Position numbers and translations under genes: made by a program. The notes under the pieces were generated by a model. The model did not search any database and was not told where the DNA came from. It worked only from the letters and a program-made list of their open reading frames with translations. A DNA stretch of 64,000 nucleotides from Mobula hypostoma (Eukaryota): positions 167,402,001-167,466,000 of the forward strand of contig NC_086097.1 of assembly GCF_963921235.1 (NCBI RefSeq), written 5' to 3'. Within the stretch, counting starts at the first letter, position 1. Every line of letters begins with the position of its first letter. Shown here piece by piece: positions 6,279 to 61,925 of this stretch.

Positions 6279-7131
6279 CAAGTTGTTATCCCAGTCTCCT
6301 ATGCTTCATGGAATGAAGCCCCCTCCACCTCTTTGCTCTCAATGCTGAAGCTTCACCATAAAAAATGGATTGAGTTTGAAAGGAAAAGGTTTGCTGGACC
6401 AAGGTCCATTGTAAGTGTGTGAACACAAGCTGATAACTGAACAGGATTTCATGCAAGATAGCACATGGGCAACCGAGGTTCAACTGGGCTCATGGATGTT
6501 CCAATGAAGGCAGTTGGCCAGGCAGGTATTTAAGTATTTTAGCCAAAAATAACATTCATGGATGATTTGATTTCCACTGCTTATTCCTGTGAACAGCACG
6601 TTCAACATCCTGATTGAAACGATTGGTGGTATTCATTCCTGTCAACTTGTAAACCAGTTCTGTGTTCTCTCAAAAAAAGTTTAACACAACCCTGGGCTTC
6701 TCCCAGAGTGGTTAAGTAACTCAGTTTTATGCTACAAACTAGTCCTTCAGATGGTTGTGAAACTGAGCTGGAGAAAAATAAATTGTACAACAAAATTGTT
6801 AAAGATCTGGAAATTACTCCATGGCGTACGAGCTATGAAGTTAAACAGATGGTTAAGCCAATTGATTTTGTTGTTGTACTTTACATTAAACACCAAGGCA
6901 CATTTTTCCCTAAATTAACTCAAAAAAATCCTGCAGTTCCTGGGGGATAGAAAGAACTCTGTGTTCACCCTATCTTATGCCTCTCATTTTCTCACTTCTG
7001 TCTGCCATGCTCCAAGGTAGGTAGTCTAAGACTTCCCAAACTCTCCATAAATTCAGGCCCTTGATTTTTGGCAATATTCTCATAAATCTTCTTTAACTCT
7101 CACAACACTTTGTTATTCTCATGATCTTAAA

Positions 7132-7595
7132 GTCATAGAGCACGGAAACAGTCCCTCTGGCCCACTGAGTCCATACCAACATCATAACAGTCTGTCTGGC
7201 CCACTGAGTCCATAGTAATTTCATAACAGTCCCTCTGGCCCACTGAGTCCATAGCAACATTATAACAGTCCCTCTGGCCCACTGAGTCCATAGCAACATT
7301 ATAACAGTCCCTCTGGCCCACTGAGTCCATGGCAAAATCATAACTGGCCCATTGAGTCCATAGCAATTTCCCTCTGGCCCACTGAGTCCATACCAACATC
7401 ATAACAGTCTGTCTGGCCCACTGAGTCTGTAGCAACATCATAACAGTCCCTCTGGCCCACTGAGTCCATAGCAACATCATAACAGTCCCTCTGGCGCACT
7501 GAGTCCATACCAACATCATAACAATCTCTCTGGTCCAGAGTCCATACCAATATCGTAAGAATCAGTCTGGCCCTCTGAGTACACCCCAACACCAT
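7132..7595. repeat. 39-bp minisatellite, ~12 units, derived from a CR1 3' terminus
   Basis: Unit ACAGTCCCTCTGGCCCACTGAGTCCATAGCAACATCATA, starts at 7148, 7187, 7226 etc., with shortened and diverged units towards the middle and right end. Confidence 0.95.
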
Positions 7596-8120: not shown

Positions 8121-8388
8121 TTGTGCATAACTTTTCTACCACTGCTGGTTTGAGTGGATTCAGGCTTCCATCTTCCACATTTCAGAAACAGAGCTCAGAA
8201 GGACTTTTAGCCTCCCTTCAGAGGCTGCCTCTATGGTTTCATATTCTTCTGTGCGTAATGCACAGCGATGTTCCAAGGCAGTGAATCTAAGTCCTATCTA
8301 TTCAGAAAGCTTACAAGCAAACAGAGCTACACACATCAAAGTTGCTGGTGAACGCAGCAGGCCAGGCAGCATCTCTAGGAAGAGGTAC

Positions 8389-8424
8389 AGTCGACGTTTC
8401 GGGCCAAGACCCTTCGTCAGGACT
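8389..8424 (-). ncRNA. Minimal type I hammerhead ribozyme motif in PLE
   Basis: Minus strand AGUC-CUGACGA-A-GGG(UCUUGG)CCC-GAAAC-GUC-GACU: CUGANGA and GAAA core, stem II, stem I AGUC/GACU, GUC cleavage triplet. Confidence 0.8.
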
Positions 8425-9315
8425 AACTGAAGGAAGAGTGAGTAAGAGATTTGAAAGTGGGAGGGGGAGGGGTAGATCCAAAATGATAGGAGAAGACAGG
8501 AGGGGGAGGGATGGAGCCAGGAGCTGGATAGGTGATTGGCAAAAGGGATATGAGAGGATCATGGGACAGGAGGCCTAGGGAGAAGGAAAAGGGGGGGGGC
8601 GGAACCCAGAGGATGGGCAAGGGGTATAGTCAGAAAGACAGAAGGAGAAAAAGGAGAGAGAGAGAAAGAATGTGTGTATAAAAATAAATAACAGATGGGG
8701 CACGAGGGGGAGGTGGGGCATTAGCGGAAGTTAGAGAAGTCAATGTTCATGCCATCAGGTTGGAGGCTACCCAGACGGAATATAAGGTGTTGTTCCTCCA
8801 ACCTGAGTGTGGCTTCATCTTTACAGTAGAGGAGGCCTTGGATAGACATATCAGAATGGGAATGGGATGTGGAATTAAAATGTGTGGCCATGGGGAGATC
8901 CTGCTTTCTCTGGCGGACAGATGAAGCCACACTCTGGTTGGAGGAACAACACCTTATATTCCGTCTGGGTAGCCTCCAACCTGATGGCATGAACATTAAC
9001 TTCTCTAACTTCCACTAATGCCCCACCTTCCCCTCGTACCCCATCCATTACTTATTTATATATAAATATTCTTTCTCTCTCTCTCCTTTTTCTCCCCCTG
9101 TCCCTCTGACTATACCCCTTGCCCATCCTTTGGGTTTTCTCCCCCCCCCCACTTTTCCTTCTCCCTAGGCCTCCTGTCCCATGATCCTCACATATCCCTT
9201 TTGCCAATCACCTGTCCAGCTCTTGGCTCCATCCCTCCTCCTGTCTTCTCCTATCATTTCGGATCTCCCCCTCCCCCTCCCACTTTCAAATCTCTTACTA
9301 GCTCTTCCTTCAGTT

Positions 9316-9351
9316 AGTCCTGACGAAGGGTCTCGGCCCGAAACGTCGACT
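9316..9351 (+). ncRNA. Minimal type I hammerhead ribozyme motif in PLE
   Basis: AGTC-CTGACGA-A-GGG(TCTCGG)CCC-GAAAC-GTC-GACT; predicted cleavage after C9347. Confidence 0.82.
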
Positions 9352-10584
9352 GTACCTCTTCCTAGAGATGCTGCCTGGCCTGCTGCGTTCACCAGCAACT
9401 TTGATGTGTGTTGCTTAGATTTCCAGCATCTGCAGAATTCCTTGTGTTTGCGAAGCAAACAGAGTTGATGTGTGTACAATGAATAAGGGGTTTGCTAAAG
9501 ATGATTAAAGATTTCAGTAAGATAGTTAATACTGCAGATATGACAGGCTGAATGAGCTCCTGCTTTATAATCTGCCAACTACCTTTAGTTGTTAATGCAC
9601 TCTATGTGTCACAGGGTGTACAAACAGATGACTGTGTGGAGGAACAACAGACTCCCATGTTGAAATAGAAACAAGAGTTTATGCGTAGGAATCCATGGCT
9701 TGACTGAGAGACACCATGAGATCAATCATTCTTGAAACACAAGGTCCTTGCGATGAGCGCAAATTGAGAGTCCAATTTAAATACTCATAGTATGCTGAAA
9801 CCCGTGGCAGTCAAAATAAATCTGACAGGATTAACTAGAAAGAACAAGGACTTAATGACTCTCAATAAGACAACAATTACCAAATACAGGTACATAGTCT
9901 CACAGGACTGATGACACCATGACTTGCTGCTGCCTCCTGGATATGCTTATATTTGGCCAAGAGGCGATATTGATTGGAATATTAGGATCTGCTGGTTCCT
10001 TCGGAGAACCAGCACAGGCAAGATTGGCTAAATGGTTACCTATTATGTCTTGTGATCATACATGACACAAATATATATTTTAAATTGCTGCATTTCACAA
10101 CCCCCATTTGCCTCATGCTCCTCACCTTTCTGCTATTCCAATCAATTAGAAATATTTTCCCTTGATGTAAATATTCAAGGAAATAGAATTTCATCCTCTG
10201 CCACCTGTGCTAAACCCAAAAATAAAGTAGAAACTTCATACTCTAGTTCAGAATTCAGTTCCTTCAACATCAAGTGATCAAGAGCAAATTTTATTCCTCA
10301 GTTATTCAGGGCTGAGTTGCTCCCAACCACCATTTCAGAACTTGTAATAAAGCATCATAAATCTATCATTCTGCATTGCTGATTAGTTTAAAAAGCTGCA
10401 GTTATTTCTTATTAGTCCAATGGAATCAGTAGAGATTGGATGCTACAAACCAGAAACCGCACAGGTTAGATACAGTTTATTCCCTTGTAGACCATTGCTC
10501 AATCTGAATCTCTCTTTGCAATACAATTCCAGATGATATATTTCTGAACAGCTGTACAGTGGAAATAGAATAGAAGGTGAGTTA

Positions 10585-18275: not shown

Positions 18276-21090
18276 TCCTGGAAAGGTGTAATAATAACAG
18301 AGTTGTTGTGATGGGAGATTTTAATTTCCCAAATATCGATTGGCATCTCCCTAGAGCGATGGGTTTAGATGGGGTGGAGTTTGTTAGGTGTGTTCAGGAA
18401 GGTTTCTTGACACAATATGTAGATTAGCCTACAAGAGGATAGAGTGTATTTGATTTGGTATTGGGAAATGAACCTGGTCAAGTGTCAGATCTCACAGTGG
18501 GAGAGCATTTTGGAGATAGTGATCATAATTCTATCTCCTTTACAATATCATTGAAGAGAAATAGGAACAGACAAGATAGAAAAGCATTTAATTGGAGTAA
18601 GGAGAATTATGAAGCTATCAGGCAGGAAATTGGATGCTTAAAGTGGGAACAGATGTTCTCAGGGAAAAATATGGAAGAAATGTGGCAAATGTTCAGGGGA
18701 TATTTGTGTGGAGTTCTGCATAGGTATGTTCCAATGAGACAGGGAAGTTATGGTAGGGTACAGGAACCATGGTGTACAAGGGCTGTAATAAATCTAGTCA
18801 AGAAGAAAAGAAAAGCTTACAAAAGGTTCAGAGAGTTAGGTAATGTTAGGGATCTAGAAGATTATAAGGCTAACAGGAAGAAGCTTAAAAACGAAATTAG
18901 GAGACCCAGAAGGGGCCATGAGAAGGCCTTAGCAGGCAGGATTAAGGAAAACCCCAAGGCATTCTACAAGTATGTGAAGAGCAAGAGGATAAGACGTGAA
19001 AGAATAGGACCTGTCAAGTGTGACAGTGAGAAAGTGTGTATGGAACTGGAGGAAATAGCAGGGGTACTTAATGAATACTTTACTTCAGTATTCACTAGGG
19101 AACAGGATCTTGGTGATTATAGTGATGACTTGCAGCAGACTGAAAAGCTTGAGCATGTAGATATTAAGAAAGAGGATGTGCTGGAGCTTTTGGAAAGTAT
19201 CAAGTTGGATAAGTCACCAGGACCAGATGAGATGTACCCCAAGCTACTGTGGAAGGTGAGGGAGGAGATTGCTGAGCCTCTGGAGATGGTCCTTGAAAGA
19301 TCAATGGGGACGGAAGAGGTTTCTGAGGATTGGAGGGTTGCGAATGTTGTTCCTTTAGATTATGAGAAAACTCAGTCCTCTTTTATTGTCATTTAGAAAT
19401 GCATACATGCATTAAGAAATTATACAATGTTCCTCCGGAGTGATATCACAGAAAACAGGACAGACCAAAGACTAACACTGACAGTACCACATAATTATAA
19501 CATATAGTTACAGCAGTGCAAAGCAATACCATAATTTGATGAAGAACAGACCATGGGCACAGTAAAAAAAAGTCTCAAAGTCCCGAGTCGATCGACTCCC
19601 AAGTCCCCGACAGCAGGTGGTAAAAGGGAGAAACTCCCTGCCATAAACCTCCAGGCACCGTCAAGTTGCCGATGCCTTGGAAGCAGCCGACCACAGCCAA
19701 CACTGAGTCCATCCGTCCGAAAAATTCGAGCTTCCGACCAGCCTCTCCGATACAGCCTCCCGAGCGCCATCCTCTGCCGAGCACCTTCAACCTCTCCCCA
19801 GCCGCTGAAACATGCAAAACTGAGGATTCGGGGCCTTCAGCTCTGGAGATTCCAGTTACCACACAGTAGCAGCGGCAGCGAAGCGGGCATTTCAGAAATT
19901 TTCCAGATGATCAAACCAGAACTGTGCACGGTCCCCTACTTTTGATAAGTTACCCCATGCCAGGCTTATTGAGAAAGTAAGGAGGCATGGGATCCAAGGG
20001 GAAATTGCTTTGTGGATCCAGAACTGGCTTGCCCACAGAAGGCAAAGAGTTGTTGTAGACGGGTCATTTTCTGCATAGAGATTAATGACCAGTGATGTGC
20101 CTCAGGGATCTGTTCTGGGACCCTTACTCTTTGTGATTTTTATAAATGACCTGGATAAGGAAGTGGAGGGATGGGTTAGTAAGTTTGCTGATGACACAAA
20201 GGTTGGGGGTGTTGTGGATAGGGTGGAGGGCTGTCAGAGGTTATAGCGGGACATTGATAGGATGCAAAACTGGGCTGAGAAGTGGCAGATGGAGTTCAAC
20301 CCAGATAACTGTGAACTGGTTCATTTTGGTAGGTCAAATATGATGGCAGAATAATGGTAAGACTCTTGGCAGTGTGGAGGATCAGAGGGATCTTGGGGTC
20401 CGAGTCCATAGGACGCTCAAAGAAACTGCGCAGGTTGATGCTGTGGTTAAGAAGGCATACGGTGTATTGGCCTTCATTAATCATGGAATTGAGTTTAGGA
20501 GCCGAGAGGTAATGTTGCAGCTATATAGGACCCTGGTCAGACCCCACTTGGAGTACTGTGTTCAGTTCTGGTCAGCTCACTACAGGAAGGATGTGGAAGC
20601 CATAGAAAGGGTGCAGAGATTTACAAGGATGTTGTCTAGATTGAGGAGCATGCCTTATGAAAACGGGTTGAGTGAACTCGGCCTTTTGTCCTTGGAGTGA
20701 CGGAGGATGAGAGGTGACCTGATAGAGGTGTATAAGATGATGAGAGGCATTGATCGTGTGGATAGTCAGAGGCTTTTTCCCAGGGCTGAAATGGTTGCCA
20801 CAAGAGGACACAGGTTTAAGGTGCTGGTGAGTAGGTACAGAGGTGATGTCAGGGGTAAGTTTTTTACTCAGAGAGTAGTGAGTGCGTGGAATGGGCTGCC
20901 GGCAACGGTGGTGGAGGCAGATACGATAGGGTCTTTTAAGAGACTTTTGGATAAGTACATAGAGCTTAGAAAAATAGAGGGCTATGGGGAAGTCTAGTAA
21001 TTTCTAAGGTAGGGACATGTTCAGCACAACTTTGTGGGCCAAAGGGCCTGTATTATGCTGTAGGTTTTCTATGTTTCTATGTTTTCTATG
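18273..21090 (+). mobile_element. CR1 LINE, relatively young, 5'-truncated in the endonuclease
   Basis: VVVMGDFNFPNIDW, VGEHFGDSDHNSI, 313-aa open ORF to [52 protein letters not shown], tail tttctatgtttctatg. Confidence 0.95.
19355..19910 (-). mobile_element. CpG-rich non-coding retroposon with a Rex-type 3' end, inserted in CR1
   Basis: Interrupts CR1 RT; minus-strand 3' end AAATGACAATAAA...ATAATCTAAA like the Rex tails in this window; no credible ORF. Confidence 0.7.
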
Positions 21091-27385: not shown

Positions 27386-27799
27386 CTGGTGAAAAAAGCG
27401 TAATTTTGTGTGTATTTTCATGTATTGAATGTAAATTGGATGAATAAAATTGTAAGAAAAACAAAAAATAGTCCAAGAAAGCCATTCTTTGTCAGGCAGC
27501 ACCTGTGAAGGGAAAATCATGTTAACATTTCATTAGAACTGGAAATAATTGCAGTGAGCTGTTTCAAATTAGCCAAGGAAATTAAAGGAGTGAATTTTGG
27601 TGAAGGGTCTTTGACCTGAAATGTGACCTCTGTTTCTCTTTCCACAGGTGCTGCCTGGTCCACTGCGTGTTTCCAGCATTTTCTGATTTTATTGCTGTGT
27701 TTCTGCATCTGCAGTTTTTTTACATTTGCAAGCAATGGAATGGCTGGGAGTGGAATGAGGAACAACAACAATGAAAAGACAAAACAGAACATATTCAAC

Positions 27800-28435
27800 A
27801 AGAACAACAGGAATTCTGCAGATGCTGGAAATTCAAGCAACACGCATCAAAGTTGCTGGTGAACGCAGCAGGCCAGGCAGCATCTCTAGGAAGAGGTGCA
27901 GTCGACGTTTCAGGCCGAGACCCTTCGTCAGGACTAACTGAAGGAAGAGTGAGTAAGGGATTTGAAAGTTGGAGGGGGAGGGGGAGATGCAAAATGATAG
28001 GAGAAGACAGGAGGGGGAGGGATAGAGCCGAGAGCTGGACAGGTGATAGGCAAAAGGGGATACGAGAGGATCATGGGACAGGAGGTCCGGGAAGAAAGAC
28101 AAGGAGTGGGGGGACCCAGAGGATGGGCAAGAGGTATATTCAGAGGGACAGAGGGAGAAAAAGGAGAGTGAGAGAAAGAATGTGTGCATAAAAATGAGTA
28201 ACAGATGGGGTACGAGGGGGAGGTGGGGCCTTAGCGGAAGTTAGAGAAGTCGATGTTCATGCCATCAGGTTGGAGGCTACCCAGACGGAATATAAGGTGT
28301 TGTTCCTCCAACCTGAGTGTGGCTTCATCTTTACAGTAGAGGAGGCCGTGGATGGACATGTCAGAATGGGAATGGGATGTGGAATTAAAATGTGTGGCCA
28401 CTGGGAGATCCTGCTTTCTCTGGCGGACAGAGCGT
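27800..28435 (-). mobile_element. Penelope-like solo pLTR-like unit
   Basis: Same GIY-YIG C-terminus (RSVRQRKQDLPVATHFN...FSNFR) and downstream sequence as 8327-8920. Confidence 0.9.
27900..27935 (-). ncRNA. Minimal type I hammerhead ribozyme motif in PLE
   Basis: Minus strand AGUC-CUGACGA-A-GGG(UCUCGG)CCU-GAAAC-GUC-GACU; one G-U pair in stem II. Confidence 0.78.
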
Positions 28436-28887
28436 ATTGTTATATTTAAAAAACACAAAGGCAGCACATGATGAGGTGCAACTGGTTACAGCAAAGGCGA
28501 GCCAGCACAAGCTGTGGAATATAATGGACAAGTGTTAGGAGATGTGCAGAGGGTCAGGCAATTGATGAAAAGCAGAGGCTCAAATCCTTTCTGCTCTGTC
28601 TCAGAGATTTTAATGGTGGTGAATTTGGCAATGGGAAGTTGTCCATCTGAGAAAAGACCCTATACATTTTTCACTGCATCAATCGTATACTACAATCATT
28701 ATATTCATAATTTAAATTAATTTGGAATTGGAATTGGAATTGATTTATTTAGAGATACAGCACATTAACAGGCCCTTCTGGCCCTACAAGCTCAATTACA
28801 TCCATGTGACCAATGAAACTACTAACACGTATGTCACTTTTTAAACCATTTGGTTCTTGTGGGAGTTTGTTTGCAGTGGTGACATAA

Positions 28888-30921: not shown

Positions 30922-31155
30922 AAGTTCTGACAACGTCTTCAAACTGAAACATCAACTCCATTTCGCTTTCCACTGATACTGCCTAATCTGCTGAGTATTT
31001 CCAACATATTTTGCCTTTATTTCAGACTTCCAACAAGGTTCTGACAAAGATCTTCAACCTGAAACTTTAACTCTGTTTCTCACAGGTGCTGCCAGACATG
31101 TTGAGTCTTTCCGGTGCTTTCTGTTTTCCAGCATCTGCAGTATGTTTTGTTTTCA
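30922..31155 (+). repeat. Tandem dimer (114-bp period) of degenerate PLE hammerhead-bearing units
   Basis: ttCTGAcaa..tcttcaa.ctGAAAc at 30927 and 31041, each followed by the cagatgctgcc..ctgctgagt..ttcc block seen after the intact PLE hammerheads. Confidence 0.65.
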
Positions 31156-36118: not shown

Positions 36119-37587
36119 TGTGTGCACAATAGAAGGAACTCTGGGCATCACAATGCTGTGATTTTTGCCAAACATGCAATATAAAACTTTGACAAACCAA
36201 TCTCTAAAAGCAACTGGCTGCATATTATTTATTATCATGCTGGATAACAGAATATCAAGGCATCATTATTGTGTTTCATTGTCAGTCTTTGGACATAGGC
36301 AAAGTTTTGTCATTTGGTGTTTGAGTGCATGAGTTTCCATTGTTAATAGGCTACTTTTCTTTCATTCTCAGTGTCAAAATGTGACTTTGCTTTCAGTTTT
36401 GAGCAGTCATAGCCTCATCTCAGAGTGTAAACATCTCTGCAGACCATTGTGACAGTGGAGTGTTCTCCAAATTCATTATTTAATGTTCGGTAGGTTACTG
36501 ACACTCAGTCCCTTCCTTTCTCTGGGTATCTCGAAGAACCCACAATGCAAGCAAGCCTGAAGACTCTGCACCACTCTTACTATAGGAGCCATTAAAAACA
36601 GCTGTGTATGTCAAGCCAATCTTATTGGCTGGAATAATGATGGCCAAAGCCAGAGAAGGATCCCTGACATCAGTTAGTCTACAGATCCTTCCATTACTTC
36701 ACACTATTCTCCAAGGAACGTGCCCAAAGCCATGGAGTTAATGTCTTCCAGGTGGCTGGATGGTATTTTAGCATTATTTTTAAATAGAGAAACAGCAAAC
36801 CTAGAATGCAAATAGAGAGCCCAATTAATGTCGTCAGCCCATTTCTGCTGTGGATGAGCATCAAAGCATGAACAGTATTATCCACTACTTCGTATTGATT
36901 AGTTCAAATGTTAGATTAAAGGGCAGATGATTATATTACATAGAACAATTTAATAGCTCTCTTGTGCTGTTATTTTCAGGATTTAATTGAGAAAGTGACT
37001 CCATTTATATCAGCACAAAACTAATGAACTTTGTTTGCATTTTGAAAGTGCTGCTGTGTACGGAATAAGGAAGTTTGAGGGAAAAAAGTGGTGCTTATGC
37101 TGATTAATAGGATTCTGCTTCAGACTATATTAAGAGGGAAACAAGATAGGATTATATTTTGGAGACACAGAAGTCTACAGGTGCTGGAATCTAGAGCAGC
37201 AAACAATCTGCTGCATAAGTCCAGATGCAGGGTTTTGACCCAAAATGTCAATAATTTCCTTTCTCTCACAGATGTGTTCCATCCGCTGGGTCCCTCTACT
37301 GCTCTAACAAATTGACTTAATTGTTTTAAGGCCAAACTTTTCACCTCCGTTTTCTGGCAGCATTTCGAAGATACCTGAGACTTTGACCCGGCTTCTCCGT
37401 CTCACTTTATTGGGCCAAGAAATGTATAATCTCAGTCAGTAACCTGCCTGAAACAGGGGCTTCTTTAGTTATTGAAGAATAGGCAATAAACAGTGGCTTT
37501 GCCAGTGACCTCTGTGGCCTTTGAAGAAATACATATATAATTCAGCACCTGCTGCTTCCTTTCTGTGCACCTGTGTTGATTGCTGAT

Positions 37588-38820: not shown

Positions 38821-39240
38821 ATACTTGACTTGAACTTCAACTTCAATTTCAAGTTTACTGTCATCAGTATATTGACGTAGGGTATAAATGCCATGAAATT
38901 GGCTTTTTGTAACAGCACAGTATATTATAAAATTATAAGTATGAGTTAACATAAATTTAAACTAGCATAAGTTATACATAATTTCTGACAAAATAAACAT
39001 AATGATGCAAGAGCAATTTGAGAGAGAGAGAGAAAGAGAAATATAGTCTGAATAACATACAAAGTGCTGGAGGAACTCAGCAGATCAGGCAGCACCTATG
39101 GAAAGGAAAAAAGAGCTAAAACTTCAGCCTGTAAAGCAAACTCTTTATTCCTTTCCACAGATGCTGTCTCACCTGCTGGGTTCCTGCAGCATTTTGTGTG
39201 TGTGATGCTGGATTTTCAGCATCTGCAGAATCTCTGGAGC

Positions 39241-40316: not shown

Positions 40317-43300
40317 ATAGATTGAGGTAATATAAGGATATTCAGGTTGGTTTGAGAACCTGATGGCAGTGGGGAAGATATTGTTGAACCTTGAAGTGTG
40401 GTTCTTCACCTCCTTGTACCTCCCGCCTGATAGCAGCATTGAGAAGAGGGCATAACCCACGTGGTGAGGTCTCTGATGTTGGATGCCACCCTTGTAAGAC
40501 ATTGCTTCTTGAAGATGTCCTTAGTGGTAGGGAGAGCAGTAGTGTGATGGAATGGGCTGTGTCTACAACAAAATTCGGGAAAGTCTTCTGGTATCTACTG
40601 CCTTCAACCAACTGGCCATCCTACCACAAATGGTAGATGCAGAGACAATTTTAGATACTTTCTAGTATGTGCATCCTTTGACTTTGCTTCTGAAGCAAAT
40701 GACAGCAAAATAGCAAATAGATTGAGATACCTCTACATTTTACCGAAGCTAATCACAGTTACAGTTCCTCCTCAGAAAGAGAACTGCTAGGGTTAAAAGA
40801 GAAGGATGTAAAACATGCTGGGTGTGTAGCATTATTTTCTACCTACAACCCACACAGCCTGGCCAATCTTTCCCAAAAACTCAAACTCTCTAGTCCTAGC
40901 AACACCTTGGTCAATCACTCTGTGTTCTTTCTACAAATGTTTGTAGTTTAACCATGTCTTTCCTACAACAGGGTGATCAAAACTGTACGCAGTGCTCCAA
41001 GCACAGCTTCACCAATAGCTAGGACAACTGCAACACGTTACATTGGCGTCTGTTTTGAATTTGACCTCCGGCCAATAAGTGGGGAAGCTACTGAATTATT
41101 CAGACAGTGTAAGATAACTAAATTTAATTAACTACCTTTTTTGCTGTTTCTGAGTCAATCATAAACACATTGCTAAGGCTTTAAAATTATGTTTCAGGAA
41201 ACAAGAAATTCCATCCACAAAGGATGAATTTTTAATGTTGCATCATGTTGTTAGAAGTATTGAATCTGTTAGTAAAAATGTCCGAAATCCAAAGATTCAC
41301 TTACAACTTAGTAATTAGAGTTTTCAAGCTTAATATCCATGAATTGGCTGTTGAGGACCTCTAGGAACAAATTGTGCAATGTAGCATCAGCAAACCTGAT
41401 GTTGGCAGCCTCTTCAAGATTCATTCTTTGGCCTGGAAATTCAATTCCGTAATGCTGTATTTTCATTATTACGCAACTGAAGATGGATTATTTCGCAGAT
41501 CAAAGGACAACAATGACGGCTTTTGGCTGGGTTTGTCTCTCTTGTAAATTCCTGTGACAAGTTATCCTCAGGTGACTTCCTCATCAGGGCATAAGGGATG
41601 ATATAATTCCCTAAGCCAAGCTCCTTCAGGTGCAATCCAAGGAAACCGAGATCACTGTCTATAGGGCACCGGTCACAGGGGCATAGAGGCACACAGCCCG
41701 GAAACAGGCTGCTTGGTCCACAATGTCCATGTTACCCAGTGAGTGCATATTCTTATTCATCCCATCTTCCAGTGTTTGACCTGCAGCCTTCTGTATCAAC
41801 GAGACACCATTCAAGTGCTCAACAAGACATGTTATAAATTCTGCTACTTATGCTGCTTTCTCTGACATTGCATTCCAAATACTCTTTGCTGTTTGGGTGA
41901 AGATAGGCCCCTCAGATCCCCACCAAGAGGTGGACCATAGTATTCTGTTGCCAAGGTATTATTAGGTTGGTTCAAGAACCTGGTGTTTGTAGGAAAGTAG
42001 ACGTTCCTGAGCCTCCTGGTGTGGAACTTCAAGCTTCTGCATCTCCTATCCATAGTATCCACGGTATCCATAGTACCTATGGTATCAGCAAGGTGAGACC
42101 TGGATGGTAGGTGTCTTTGACGATTGATACCACCTTCTTGCTTTTGATGGTGGTGAGAGCTGTGCCTGTAATAGACCGGACTGAGTCCACAGTCTGTACA
42201 GTTTAGGTATAATCATTTTCTCTGTGTTGACTGAATCTATATGCCTCTGATGCTGTTGCAAGCAAGATTTTCATAGTACCTTACCTCACCTGATGACAAT
42301 AAGCTTAACTTGCAGGTTCCTACAGTCTACCCTGTCTATGTCACTTATAATTTTATATATGTCAACCATGGCCCCTTTTAACCACACTTTAGAGTGCTCA
42401 TTTCAGTTCTGGTCATATGGGAAGGAGGTGGAAGCTTCTTCCCATATGACCAGACAGGGTGCAGGGAACATTTATCAACATGCTGTCTGGATTAGAGCAC
42501 ATCTTATGAGGAAAGATAGAGTGAGCTAGGGCTTCTCTCCTTGGAACAAAGGAGGACAAGAGATGAGTTGACAGGCTAAAAGGTCAGAACAACACTAGGG
42601 GCTGAAGGGCCTGTATTGTGCTGTGCTGTTCAATGTTATATGTAAACTGCTCTAGTGTAATCCAGTCCCAAGCTTCTCTGTGCATAGAAAAATAAAAAAT
42701 AGGAGGAATAGGTTATCTGCACCTTCAAGCCTATCCCAACATTCATCAGTACCACAGCCAATCTCCTACCTCAACACAACTTGTCAGTGCTGTCACCATA
42801 TTCTTATATTTCCTTTGCATCTAGAAATCTATCCATCTCTATTTTCAATATGACCTAGGCCTCCACGTAGTGGAGAATTTCTACATGAATTACAATCCAA
42901 CCCATTTTATTCTTCCTGTATAACCATCAACAGCCCCCACTTTCTTCTGCTCACATTCACCAGGGACTGCTTACAGTGGCCAAATAGCATACCAACCTGC
43001 ATAGTTGCTATGATGTGGAAGAAACTCAGAACACCAGGGGGAATCTCATCTTGTCAAGTCACTGAGAATTGACAGCAGCCATCCTACAATTTTCCAGTGC
43101 ATCCTGGTGTTTGCCAACTGTCTGCATTCTGAAATAAGTCCTTTTGCGCAATAAACAATTCTTCAATGGTTCAAAAACTTCTGCGAGACAACGGAAATAT
43201 GATCAGGACAGCTCTCAATTCAGTTCTGTATCCATGAGTGGGACTATGCAAAAGGCCTAGACTGGGAATGACATTGACACCCAAGTCTGGGACCTACTTT

Positions 43301-45729
43301 GATGCAAGTTTATCAGTTGGTTACAGCTGAGTGACTTGTTAGATTATTTCAATATAGTGAACAATCATACATATATTGTGTGGATTGGAGTCTTATATAA
43401 ATTCAACTAAGCAAGGATGGTGGTTTATTGCTAACTCGGAGTGCTTTATGATGACTTACTCTGTTTTAAAAGTGTTATTAAGTATGCTGTATGTAATGCC
43501 AAGAGATTAATTGGTTCCTTCTTTAACCAATATTTGTCAAGGCATGGTGCCACACTTTGGACAGAGAAAGTGAAACAGTTTTCAGAAAAGCTCGTGTGAA
43601 TAAGTGAATAGGTTGATATTTAAGTTCACATGAATAACCTTGTTTGACCAAGCATAAATAAGTCTGGATAAAACATATGTGAAAGAAATGAGTTAACTGA
43701 AACAGGTTGCATGCCAAATATCACAGACTTCAAAAGAAAGCACAAGGAAAGGAGTGCATTTACATAGCACCATTCACTTAATCCCAAAATGATTTACAAC
43801 CAGCAAATTGTATTTGAAGTATAATCACTGTTATAATGTTAAAGAATAACATACAGTACAGGAAGTTGCTAATTTTTTAGCAATATTTATTGAGCAAAAA
43901 GTAGTGTTCAAAATCCTGGGGTGTTATAGGATCTCTATAACTGATGGTTATACAGGAAGAATAAAATGGGTTGGATTGTAATTCATGTAGAAATTCTCCA
44001 CTCTGTGGAGGCCTAGGTCATATTGAAAATAGGTAGATGCAGTACAGAGAATCATAGATAACCACACTGAAGGAGGCTACTTGGCCCTCTTGTCAATACT
44101 GACCAAAAGTAGATCTTAAATTAATCTAGCTTCTTAGCTCTTGTTTCATTTCCCTTCAGGTTTTGGCTCTACAAGTAAGTATCCAGGTAGATTTTAAAGG
44201 GTTGCTGATTTGAGCACCCTGTCAGTGAGTAAGTTCCAGATCTCCATAGTTCCTTAAGTTCTGTTGCAAAAGTGTCACATTTCAACACCTTGACTCTGTT
44301 GGCCCACTTTTACTGCAACCTTGTAGCCTCCAAGTTTGCAAGTATGACAATTCTCTTCCACCAGCTCTGTAGACAGAATTTTAATGATAGGAACACCCTC
44401 TGGGTGAGGTGGCCTGAAAAATGGATAGCTATAGTTTGACCAGGGGACAATTTTCCACACCATCCTTCATCAAAGGAGCCAGAAGAATCTAAAAAATTAA
44501 TTTTGCTGGACTGCTGTACTTTTTCTGAGTTGATCAGATAAGAATTTGAGAACTGGCCTGGGCTCAGGTCTAGCAGGATTGTTTCATTAATTTCGAGAAC
44601 ATCTTCTGATGGTTTGTCCTTGGAAGACCTCAAAGGATTCATTGGTTTTAGGGAATCGAACGACAAATAAATAGTTTTGGCTATAAGCTCATACCAAATG
44701 GATCAGTATTGTAATAGGACTAATTAATTTTCTACGTATATAAGTTGCTCGGTATCACATCTGGGACAGCTGTAAAAGGAGAAGACAACATGGTGAGTTT
44801 GCAGCTAGACAGTTATATACTGGTCATAGGCTGAATATACGTACAACTCTGCCGGTGAATGGGAAATCGGGTACTTCCTTTTGGTCTTTTGAATTTGTAG
44901 TGAATTTAGTAGTTTGTGTTTAAAGAAAGAGGCATAGGTTGTGCATACTTCTGGGACCAGTAGATGTACAACAGTGTTGTAATCTCTCGCTGATTTTAAT
45001 TGTCACTCGGTGCTGAGATGTTGTTGTTTATGACATATTTTAACAATTTGGATGTGAATGTAGGATATATGATTAGTAAGTGTGTGGATGATATGAAAGT
45101 TGGTAGTGTTGTGCATAGTATCCCTGATAACCGATGCCACCTTCCTGAGAATTGCCTCCTGATGGTAGGGAGATCTACACCAATGATGGAGTTGGTTGAG
45201 TTTGTCATTCTCTGTAGCCTCTTGCTAACTTGTGCATTTGAATTTCCACACCATGATACAACCAACAGAGTGTCTTCTATGGCACATGTGCAGAAGACAT
45301 GACATGCTGAATCCCCGTAAACTTTTAAGACAGATGCTAGCAAACTTTCTATCTGATTGCATCTATGTCCTGGTCCCAGGATGGGTTCTCCAAGATGTTA
45401 ACAATAAGGAACTTGAAGCTGCTCACTCTTTCTACCTCAGACTCTTCAATGAGGACTGGGGTGTACTTACCTGACTTTCCCTTTGTAAAGTCCACAATCA
45501 ACTCCTTGGTCTTGCTGAAACTGAGTGCAAGGTTGTTACAATACAACTCAACCAGCTGACCAATCCCACTCCCGCACCCTGCCTCGTCACCATCCATGAT
45601 TCATTGGTGTCATTGGTGAATTCTACCCCTCCTTCAGAAGAGATCTTTGCCTTGAGATCTCTTTTGATTTATTAGGGATCATCTTATACTTAACATTTCT
45701 TAGTTACCTACCCTAAGTGCTATAGCAAT

Positions 45730-49632: not shown

Positions 49633-51609
49633 TAAGGCTGTTCTTGCAGTGAGATTATGGTCCCGAAAGAAGAAAGTAAATGCTTCTTTGCATTAATGCA
49701 TAGCATAAGTAAACTCTGTAGTTCTAGATATTTAAAGTTCTAATGAAAGGTCCTAAGCCTGAACTGTTAACTTTTTCTCCTCCACAGATGCTGACAGCCT
49801 TCTAAGTGTTTCCAACATTTTCTGTTTTTTTTTATTTCAGATTTCCAGTACTATTTATAGGAACTGGTTCTCCAGCTCTTGGGTTTTATTGACAAACAAT
49901 CTGCTGGAAGAACTCAGCGGGTCGAGCAACATCTGTTGAGGGGAAGAAATTATCAATGTTCTGGTCAAAACCCTGCCTTGGGATGAATGATGCCAGGCTT
50001 TGACCTGTAACATCAACAAATCCTTCCTCAACCTCTCCCCAACCCCTTGCCCCGTGAACCGATGCTGCTCAACCTGCTGATTTCCTCCAGTAGATTGTGT
50101 CTTGCTCGAAACTACAGCATCTGCAGATCTTGTGTCTCCTTGGCTCTTATCAGACTGCACCTGCATTAAAGGGTTTGATTAGGACAGGAAGATAATATGC
50201 ACTTTAGATCGAGATTTCATATACCAAGCCATATGGAATGTAGTGAGAAAATCTTGTCTGTTCCTTATCAACTGATACTAACAATATTAGAATATCAATT
50301 TAATCTTTGTTTCAACTGAATTATAAATGGAACACCCTGTAATTTTCATTAGTCACACAGGAAATAATTAAATGAATATTACACTGGTAAGTTATTTGAA
50401 GGCAGAGTGAGAAAATGTTTACCATAAAGGATGTTATCAGGCATCATGAATTTTTAAAATACAAAAATGTTGATTGCATTACCAAGGTCATTGAATATTA
50501 CCTGGAAGTGGTTACCAACTACAGTGAATAAGAGTACAAATTAAGCATTCTGTTATTATCACATAAAAACAGTAATGTTTATATGCTCATAAAGTTCTCT
50601 ATAGAGTAGCAGTTTCTCTGGTGCCAGAAATCAAATCTGTGCCCTGAAATATTATAAAGGGATACAATGCAGTGAAATTGCCTGTGCTCCTGAAATGACA
50701 GAGGTATGAGATGATTCAACAGGCTCCCTGATTTTGTCTCACCATGAAGTGTAACAAGGTGGACCAATTCCTTGTGAGCTTGCAGCACCGTCGGGAAAGT
50801 TCTGAAGGCTTTCAGCATGTCAGGCAGCATTGGTAGAAAGAGAATTCTTGTGAATGTTTTGTTTCTGATGATACTGTGATACTGCTGAAAGTAAGTTTTT
50901 CATTGCAGCAGTGGATATACTCACATGTACATAAGACAATAAACTCAACTTTGATTTTGAGACACTGGGTTAATGTTTCAGGTTCAATACTCTTCGTCAG
51001 ATTTGAGAAAAAATTAGAAAGACTAATCCCAATTCTGATGAAATATCAATCTGTAACGCTAACTCTCATTCTCTTTTCATAGAAGCTGCCTGACCTGTCG
51101 GGAGTTTCCGGGACTTTGTTTTATTTCATAAATCCAGCATTTTCAGCTTATGTTTTAATTTTAATTTTCTCCTCATTATCTATGTCTAATGAAAAGCTTA
51201 TTTTGCTTAGAGTCCCAACCTGGCTTAATGTGCTATTCCATCACTATGATATTATTTTTAATATTAATTGTTATTGATCTTAAATTGGCTTACAATGTGA
51301 GTATAGAAAAGAAGTGATATTGTCTGACTTTGTTTAAATAAAACATTCAAAGGCAAATTCATTCTTTATTTTAAAGGCAAAGGCAATAAACATTGTTACT
51401 GTCCCAAAATGAATGTACTGTAGCTTTTCAACCCTTTCCACATTTCTAGTCTCCACATTATGAAAATAATATATATTGCAAAATGGTAAATGCTGAATAG
51501 ATCTACACATTGCAATCAAGTGTTCAGAAAAGCCTGAACAGGTTGGAAGGCTTTTTTTAATAGAAAAAGAGGCAACATCATTTTAAGATGTTCAAAAAAA
51601 ATCTATATC

Positions 51610-60955: not shown

Positions 60956-61925
60956 CACAACTCTACCCAATATATAAATGAAAATGAGTATCAGGATTGT
61001 ATGTGGTATCATATATGCACTTTGATAATAAATTTACTTTGAACTTTAAATAAGTTTTACAACAGATGGGAAGGTGAGATGAGTTGAGTTCCAGCAACAT
61101 CCTTGTAAATCTCCTTTGTACTCTTTCCTGCTTAATAGCACTTTTTCCCATATAGGTAGGCAGATGGGTTTTGGCCCAAAACATCGACTGTACAATTTTC
61201 CATAGATGCTGCCTGGCCTGCTGAGTTCCTCCGGTATTTTGTGTGTGTTTTGCAACTAGATGATCTTTTAGGTAGGAGGATTGAAAACTAACATGAAAAG
61301 AGATTTAAATTCAGAATTATTATGACTTCAAAGAAAACAAAATATATTTTTGTGTCCTAATCAGAAAATGGACCAGAAAGAAGGATTGCTTTTATCCAGT
61401 CAGCATATGGACAATGGACCAAATTGCCTCCTTCAATTTAAGATGATTCTATAACAGAATACAGGCATTCCCTGTGCCGCTCATACACCTCCACAATACT
61501 TTCAAACACGTAATTCTAGTGTCAGAGAAATAACATTGAAGTGATTTGATTTTACTGAGACCAATTATGTTTCACAACTCATACTTCAGCAAGGACCTTG
61601 AGCCTGTTTGCATTCTGGATATTGCAGAATAATGATTCTGGTGTTCCAATAATACTTGTCATCAGCACATTATTATGGATCCATATCACTTTATTTAAGT
61701 GTTCCAAAGATAAAATTACATAGCTCTGCCAGTTTGAAGCTATTGTGCAGTCATTTGTTTCAGGCAGTTCAGGACTAATTTGTGAAGATAATTACTCCAA
61801 ATTGGAATTCTGAGAGGTAGTGTGGGTCAATCATCATTTAACCAGTGTATTCCTGATCATTGCTGATATTTCAGATAATTACACCCTGAATTACAATATC
61901 TGATTACATTCCTCGTACATACTAA

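Follow-up and report, generated by a model that had tools for sequence, protein, structure and literature searches.

Minimal hammerhead motifs in 5'-truncated insertions of a very abundant Penelope-like family of Mobula hypostoma, predicted to be inactive in place

The three hammerhead motifs found in the window (the whole stretch of Mobula hypostoma DNA that was analysed, 64,000 nucleotides long) are, with high confidence, minimal hammerheads of a very abundant Penelope-like family, carried by 5'-truncated and protein-less insertions in which no activity is predicted for them and their decay is likely neutral. The motif, its place in the pLTR beyond the endonuclease stop codon, and the inverted layout of two of the copies, with a target duplication and one tail, are observed directly. 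A core-pattern search of the window returned three matches, compared to none in 100 shuffles, and a structure-aware scan, which required the core together with a stem I and a stem II of at least 3 bp each, recovered the identical three sites and none in 200 of 200 dinucleotide shuffles. All three motifs claimed by the initial annotation are therefore present where it had placed them; they are given below, with hammerhead B also divided into its parts.

8389-8424 (-): minimal hammerhead A, predicted cut 8393/8392; one CpG change, at 8406 in loop II
9316-9351 (+): minimal hammerhead B, predicted cut 9347/9348
9315-9319/9348-9352 (+): stem I of hammerhead B
9320-9326 (+): CUGACGA of hammerhead B
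9327 (+): extra A of hammerhead B
9328-9331/9336-9339 (+): stem II of hammerhead B
9340-9343 (+): GAAA of hammerhead B
9343-9346 (+): ACGU of hammerhead B
27900-27935 (-): minimal hammerhead C, predicted cut 27904/27903; C11.1>U at 27912, a CpG change

The consensus of the three copies reads AGTC-CTGACGA-A-GGGT-CTYG-GCCY-GAAAC-GTC-GACT. The core elements CUGANGA, GAAA and UH stand in type I order in 3/3 copies, one extra base separates A9 from position 10.1 (the A at 9327 in hammerhead B), and stem III consists of the ACGU palindrome only in each of them. Stem I comprises 5 bp with a terminal U-G pair, and stem II comprises 4 bp, closed by a U-G pair and capped by a 4-nt loop, where the initial description had 3 bp and a 6-nt loop; the predicted cut of the plus-strand copy is the very scissile bond proposed earlier, 9347/9348. 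The motif lies about 300 nt beyond the endonuclease stop codon and about 100 nt short of the 3' end of the element. Changes of the G10.1-C11.1 pair slow hammerheads. A and B keep this pair, and the C11.1>U change of C yields G10.1-U11.1 as the first pair of stem II. Because the change in C hits a pair reported, in the part of PMC4209133 that is available, as highly conserved in minimal hammerheads, the earlier statement that the core is unchanged is restricted here to the unpaired core bases, which are intact in all three copies; it also holds for A, whose change falls in loop II. The accessible part of PMC544870 gives no figure for a G-U pair at 10.1-11.1.

The initial count of three copies holds for the motifs and not for the insertions, which number only two. 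A and B are the arms of a single insertion, as a 12-bp duplication stands around both of them and a tail is found at one end. The features of the two insertions are as follows.

8315-8326: target-site duplication, left copy, 12 bp, AAGCAAACAGAG, exact repeat of 9453-9464
8327-8921 (-): arm A, 5'-truncated Penelope-like copy with the end of the endonuclease ORF and the pLTR, tail-less
8724-8921 (-): endonuclease domain GIY-YIG of arm A, last 66 codons; stop codon at 8721-8723
8919-8921: head-to-head junction, 3-nt microhomology AGA common to both arms
8919-9452 (+): arm B, shorter 5'-truncated copy with the last 32 endonuclease codons, pLTR and tail; stop codon at 9016-9018
9412-9452 (+): tail of about 40 nt, in arm B and copy C, missing from arm A
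9453-9464: target-site duplication, right copy, exact repeat of the left copy
9465-9475 (+): flank matching the element end, 11 nt identical to 9401-9411, where tail-less arm A ends
27803-28436 (-): copy C, same family as A/B, solo and 5'-truncated, with tail

As a control for the 12-bp duplication, 5000 pairs of 40-nt windows were compared, of which 2 shared 12 or more identical bases. The arms are asymmetric, with a joint devoid of palindrome; they differ from each other at 27 of 487 sites (5.5%), share the less common allele at 9167 and differ at 9051. A contig labelled as a second species spans the right junction with 6 differences over 234 letters and, because only 23 of these letters fall inside the element (threshold 31), it gives a hint only of an old insertion shared by the two species. 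'Opposite strand' contig joints at 8840-8859/8919-8926 were considered as an inversion hot spot and rejected, as ordinary copies give such joints because the query stretch itself contains the inversion. Copy C differs by 7.2% from arm A and by 8.7% from arm B, and no clear target duplication was seen by eye in its flanks. The 5' truncation points of arm A (8921) and copy C (about 28436) fall within 5 nt of each other, perhaps reflecting a preferred stop or a pLTR boundary.

Older pLTR ends in a decayed state, roughly a dozen and several of them clustered, are also present in the window; none of these older remnants passes the intact-core scan. They include the following.

27593-27715 (+): older pLTR end, decayed, from a related subfamily, E 1e-7, with a broken core; placed tail to tail with copy C at a distance of about 90 bp
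30924-31147: older pLTR end
37216-37292: older pLTR end
39060-39239: older pLTR ends, a head-to-head pair, overlapping
49736-50133: older pLTR end
50813-51102: older pLTR end
61153-61248 (+): older decayed pLTR end, the best of the older remnants, E 2e-14; core broken

The family was identified through its endonuclease piece. The 66-residue end of the reading frame of copy C shows 95% identity to P0001, a predicted protein of Mobula hypostoma, in a search that gave 19 matches among 22 candidates and in which the next named were from Hypanus, Rhinoraja and Hemitrygon, a set that by itself makes a myliobatiform ray the likely host; the endonuclease tail of arm A is identical to the C-terminus of P0001 at 61 of 66 residues (92%). 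P0001 carries YIDD in its RT, a CxxxxCxxC linker (by eye) and a weak GIY-YIG match with an E value of 4.6e-4 and 20.9 bits, under the cut-off of 22.6. GIY-YIG was matched in 3 of the 5 relatives scanned, and Pfam matched 0 of 2 when the endonuclease pieces of the window were used alone. According to the accessible part of PMC8557442, a CX2-5CxxC linker between RT and endonuclease marks Neptune or Nematis. As the window copies have neither RT nor linker and retain only the last 66 aa of the endonuclease, it is the relative P0001 that makes the element likely Neptune-clade, Nematis having the same linker. Taken together, the motif, its position and the relatives of the endonuclease bear out the initial description of minimal type I hammerheads with a palindromic stem III in Penelope pLTR units. 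It should be noted that the endonuclease tail is also matched by predicted ray proteins named as host genes (P0003, P0006, P0008, P0013 and P0019, with the names DIPK1C, ATP synthase C3-like, NMUR1, VKORC1L1 and ABHD14A isoforms), which may be exonised copies or annotation errors.

This Penelope-like family is plainly very large. Two DNA runs yielded 120,804 and 197,585 contig records on 1161 bases, and the summed contig depth, which is not a copy number, reaches millions over the motif, whereas in the unique flank it is about 10 and 100. Two further runs, guessed to be RNA, contain contigs of the family and leave the unique flank 9464-9580 without cover, which is not evidence on expression. 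Contigs of related repeats join the sequence at 9316, the first base of stem I as initially drawn, in 4/4 runs (678, 706, 131 and 64 contigs) and, among the matches listed, leave it at 9353 in 3/4 runs (506, 497 and 64 contigs).

Among the three young copies, the motif shows no measurable excess conservation over its flanks, the criterion named by the initial annotation: 2 of 36 sites vary in the motif (5.6%) compared to 50 of 449 elsewhere (11.1%, p=0.41), in a test that is weak at n=3. Variable sites amount to 3/92 in the endonuclease piece, 45/297 in the upstream non-coding part and 2/60 downstream, and the comparison of the motif with the upstream non-coding part alone gives p=0.14; both changes within the motif (8406 and 27912) are CpG transitions. 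An alignment of 12 copies was built from the three young copies and 9 of 15 older stretches, the other 6 being dropped as their ribozyme part was missing or unrecognisable. In this alignment 78.5% of the stem cells pair vs 74.4% in shuffles (27/500 as high) and 18-46% when the stems are slid, and the covariation score is modestly above that of shuffles (19/500 as high), a value inflated by the kinship of the copies. The pair 1.1-2.1 is U-A in 6 of the aligned copies, C-G in 4, U-G in 1 and unpaired in 1. A metagenome scan with a 20-nt motif downstream of the ribozyme, which aimed to gather copies without selecting on the core, returned 32 loci, none of which (0/32) had an upstream hammerhead and which appear to be chance matches. 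The motif is likely maintained in master lineages and decays once inserted, the data from the three copies being compatible with weak selection. Because conservation appears only between subfamilies, it is probably selection on active masters, and not on the present copies, that retained the motif across subfamilies.

Two other conserved features lie next to the cut. Young and old copies alike retain, about 20 nt beyond the cut, a pyrimidine run followed by AG-ATG/GTG-CTG (9352-9376, +), which could be a splice acceptor or a start codon; the ATG frame at 9368 ends after 16 codons. The cut site itself lies inside a 6-nt palindrome (9345-9350) that reads GUC/GAC in young copies and GUU/AAC, or is decayed, in older ones (30927, 31041, 49740). 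Across young and older copies this palindrome and stem I change together.

Selection on masters need not be selection for cutting. Even in active masters the motif might be a selfish or vestigial passenger, or be kept for a non-cutting role such as protein binding, RNA pairing, or a splicing or start signal. This explanation is about the masters and does not conflict with the one preferred here for the genomic copies; it is a real possibility that we nevertheless hold to be doubtful. Ribozyme mutants of the Anolis element were without effect on insertion in vitro (PMC11167929, in the part available), Naiad elements thrive without canonical motifs, for which parasitism is raised by the authors (PMC8557442, in the part available), and the conserved block reaches about 60 nt beyond the motif. 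By contrast, the similarity between subfamilies begins precisely at the first base of stem I, the stems show compensatory pairs, and the Anolis motif does cut, only when the protein of the element is added, core mutants losing activity in the experiments accessible in PMC11167929.

By analogy with the literature, two sense motifs of an active tandem element would pair through ACGU, thereby forming stem III, and would be cut after GUC, weakly and probably with the help of the protein of the element. The copies of the window are predicted to behave otherwise. In nearest-neighbour models, whose energies leave out core tertiary contacts and protein help, the isolated 38-mer prefers a hairpin between GACG of the core and CGUC of the cleavage site (-12.9 vs -8.9 kcal/mol), and stem I forms with P<=0.03 when 60 nt of flank are included. 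The modelled active dimer reaches -16.7, vs -25.8 for two monomers and -20.5 for a dimer that pairs by means of the GUCGAC palindrome spanning the cut site; the 6-nt palindrome would thus offer an inactive dimer competing with the active one. The modelled fold of the 8327-9452 read-through RNA has an energy of about -1010 kcal/mol, the motif being paired with its antisense copy with P=0.97 (+) and 1.0 (-) and stems I and II having P=0. In either direction of read-through the antisense arm is made first and the single sense motif after it, and a duplex of about 500 bp is predicted to enclose this only sense motif, which would therefore be buried. Transcription started inside an arm and heading outward would escape the duplex. 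As for copy C, its stem II would be weakened and a partner would be lacking in its vicinity.

These predictions bear on the proposal of the initial annotation that the copies could cut a host pre-mRNA or lncRNA read through them, whether as monomers, through the distant A-C minus-strand pair or with partners in trans. We consider such cutting very improbable. The inverted layout argues against it, as the transcript contains a single sense motif, which follows the antisense partner and should, by prediction, be fully paired; this applies to minus-strand A, and C carries G10.1-U11.1. In the accessible parts of the published work, single minimal motifs showed no cleavage and dimers little (PMC4209133), no reads in the Anolis RNA data ended at the cut site (PMC11167929), and only 1/9 Xenopus dimers was cut, 8/9 remaining uncut (preprint bioRxiv 10.64898/2026.07.22.740005). 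Moreover, no host coding exon was found by Pfam among 203/203 reading frames of at least 72 aa, a threshold at which short exons would be missed. The matches obtained with these 203 frames (RT, AP endonuclease, SGNH-type ORF1, ALKBH8_N and one DUF) are all taken here to be retrotransposon domains. On the other side, the unpaired core bases are intact in 3/3 copies, the minus strand carries both A and C, at a distance of 19.5 kb from each other, and the family is very abundant, so that partners in trans may be conceivable. In addition, related hammerhead repeats are depleted from Xenopus introns and exons in the available part of the same preprint, and predicted host proteins among the 19 matches carry the endonuclease tail, which indicates that gene models run through such copies elsewhere. 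Were host cutting to occur, a very abundant repeat would cleave host transcripts; the present locus argues against it. Finally, that the resemblance to a hammerhead is due to chance is a negligible prospect: Rfam gave no hammerhead match, either across the window at the gathering score or within 8200-9600 at E<=10, and folding z-scores are only -1.2 to -2.0, yet the structure-aware scan, unlike the Rfam model, finds all three motifs and none in 200 shuffles, and they present all the listed features of the published minimal motif at the published position. Five weak Rfam matches in 8200-9600 were put down to the inverted repeat or to chance.

Some other features of the window should be mentioned. 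Two inverted repeats (42839-42929 and 43942-44032) of 91 nt, 98% alike and 1012 nt apart, may belong to a young non-autonomous DNA transposon (42839-44032), and a tandem array with a unit of 39 nt occupies 7074-7576. The open frames 3-809 (-, 269 aa) and 18443-19393 (+, 317 aa) have no Pfam match and are presumably pieces of LINE reading frames.

The well-kept anatomy of the inverted insertion is the useful part of the locus, as it bears on how head-to-head insertions form and on when the ribozyme meets its partner, two subjects treated in the available parts of PMC3846280 and PMC11167929. The 11-nt flank match adjoins the right target duplication directly, an observation made after the fact. 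Of 4815 control flanks, a set that may include older remnants, 7 show a match of at least 11 nt; compared with arm A (8329-8339), the flank 9465-9475 gives a match of 12 nt when arm A's own letter is used, and the 11 nt include a short TG run of the kind favoured by these elements. A template switch, or a preference for target sites resembling the element itself, may explain this match. From what is accessible of the two papers, PMC3846280 prefers self-priming on antisense RNA, argued from palindromes at the joints, and PMC11167929 reports that both strands are nicked and extended, that two start sites bound the tail and that a protein dimer is predicted. Because the flank match and the nicking, start sites and dimer of PMC11167929 together permit a two-nick origin, at one locus, we put forward, as a speculative and rather unlikely scenario, that 8315-9464 could be the fossil of a two-nick, two-RNA reaction, in which a dimeric RT-endonuclease would have nicked the two strands 12 bp apart beside an 11-nt look-alike of the end of the element, each nick priming the copying of a pLTR RNA. 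One copy would then start at the tail start and the other at the tail end, the two being joined by 3 nt. If this were true, the particle would hold two pLTR RNAs, where minimal hammerheads could pair via ACGU and cut, and antisense self-priming would be unnecessary for head-to-head insertions. A literature search found no statement of a two-nick model, which is weak evidence. The abundance of the family would allow both the formation of head-to-head insertions and the ribozyme partner to be tested by counting insertions.

As found, the locus is of little consequence beyond the addition of a ray family to the known hammerhead class described in 2014. No report on this hammerhead family was found in a literature search, in which 'shark' meant a motif shape. 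In the part available of the preprint bioRxiv 10.64898/2026.07.22.740005 one cartilaginous fish was sampled, and the supplements of this preprint and of PMC4209133 may already list relatives of the motif.

The closest known motifs are the minimal hammerheads of metazoan Penelope-like elements (Cervera and De la Pena 2014, PMC4209133), compared here with the accessible part of that paper, in which cartilaginous fishes are not named. Both are of type I, with a helix I of 4-5 bp and one extra base 9/10.1, and both have G10.1-C11.1 (in A and B), palindromic 15.2-16.2, no loop 3 and a location in the pLTR; both also occur mostly as single motifs in truncated copies and as opposite-strand pairs. They differ in helix II, which has 4 bp here and 7-8 bp in Schistosoma, in the spacing of the motif pair, 892 bp here and about 100-700 bp there, and in the G10.1-U11.1 pair of copy C. 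Regarding the insertion, the inverted-pLTR Penelope insertions described in the available portions of Arkhipova 2013 (PMC3846280) and Craig 2021 (PMC8557442) are likewise head-to-head and 5'-truncated, with a tail of 30-40 bp at one end in both cases and a duplication of 8-10 bp vs 12 bp here; by contrast, the present insertion has no joint palindrome and shows a 3-nt microhomology, unequal arms and the 11-nt flank identity. Neptune-clade elements differ from the window copies, which are without RT and linker, the linker being seen in the relative P0001 only. With the Poseidon element of Anolis, PAc (Frangieh 2024, PMC11167929, accessible part), the family shares a hammerhead in the pLTR and two 3' end points that define a tail; PAc belongs to another clade, and its motif overlaps the start codon and was assayed, whereas ours was analysed in silico. 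Lastly, the non-LTR retrozymes of the preprint cited above also have a type I hammerhead, placed, in the part available, in short repeats derived from pLTRs. Identity with them was rejected, since they form direct tandem arrays, whereas the copies of the window are an inverted pair and a solo copy, each with a piece of the endonuclease.
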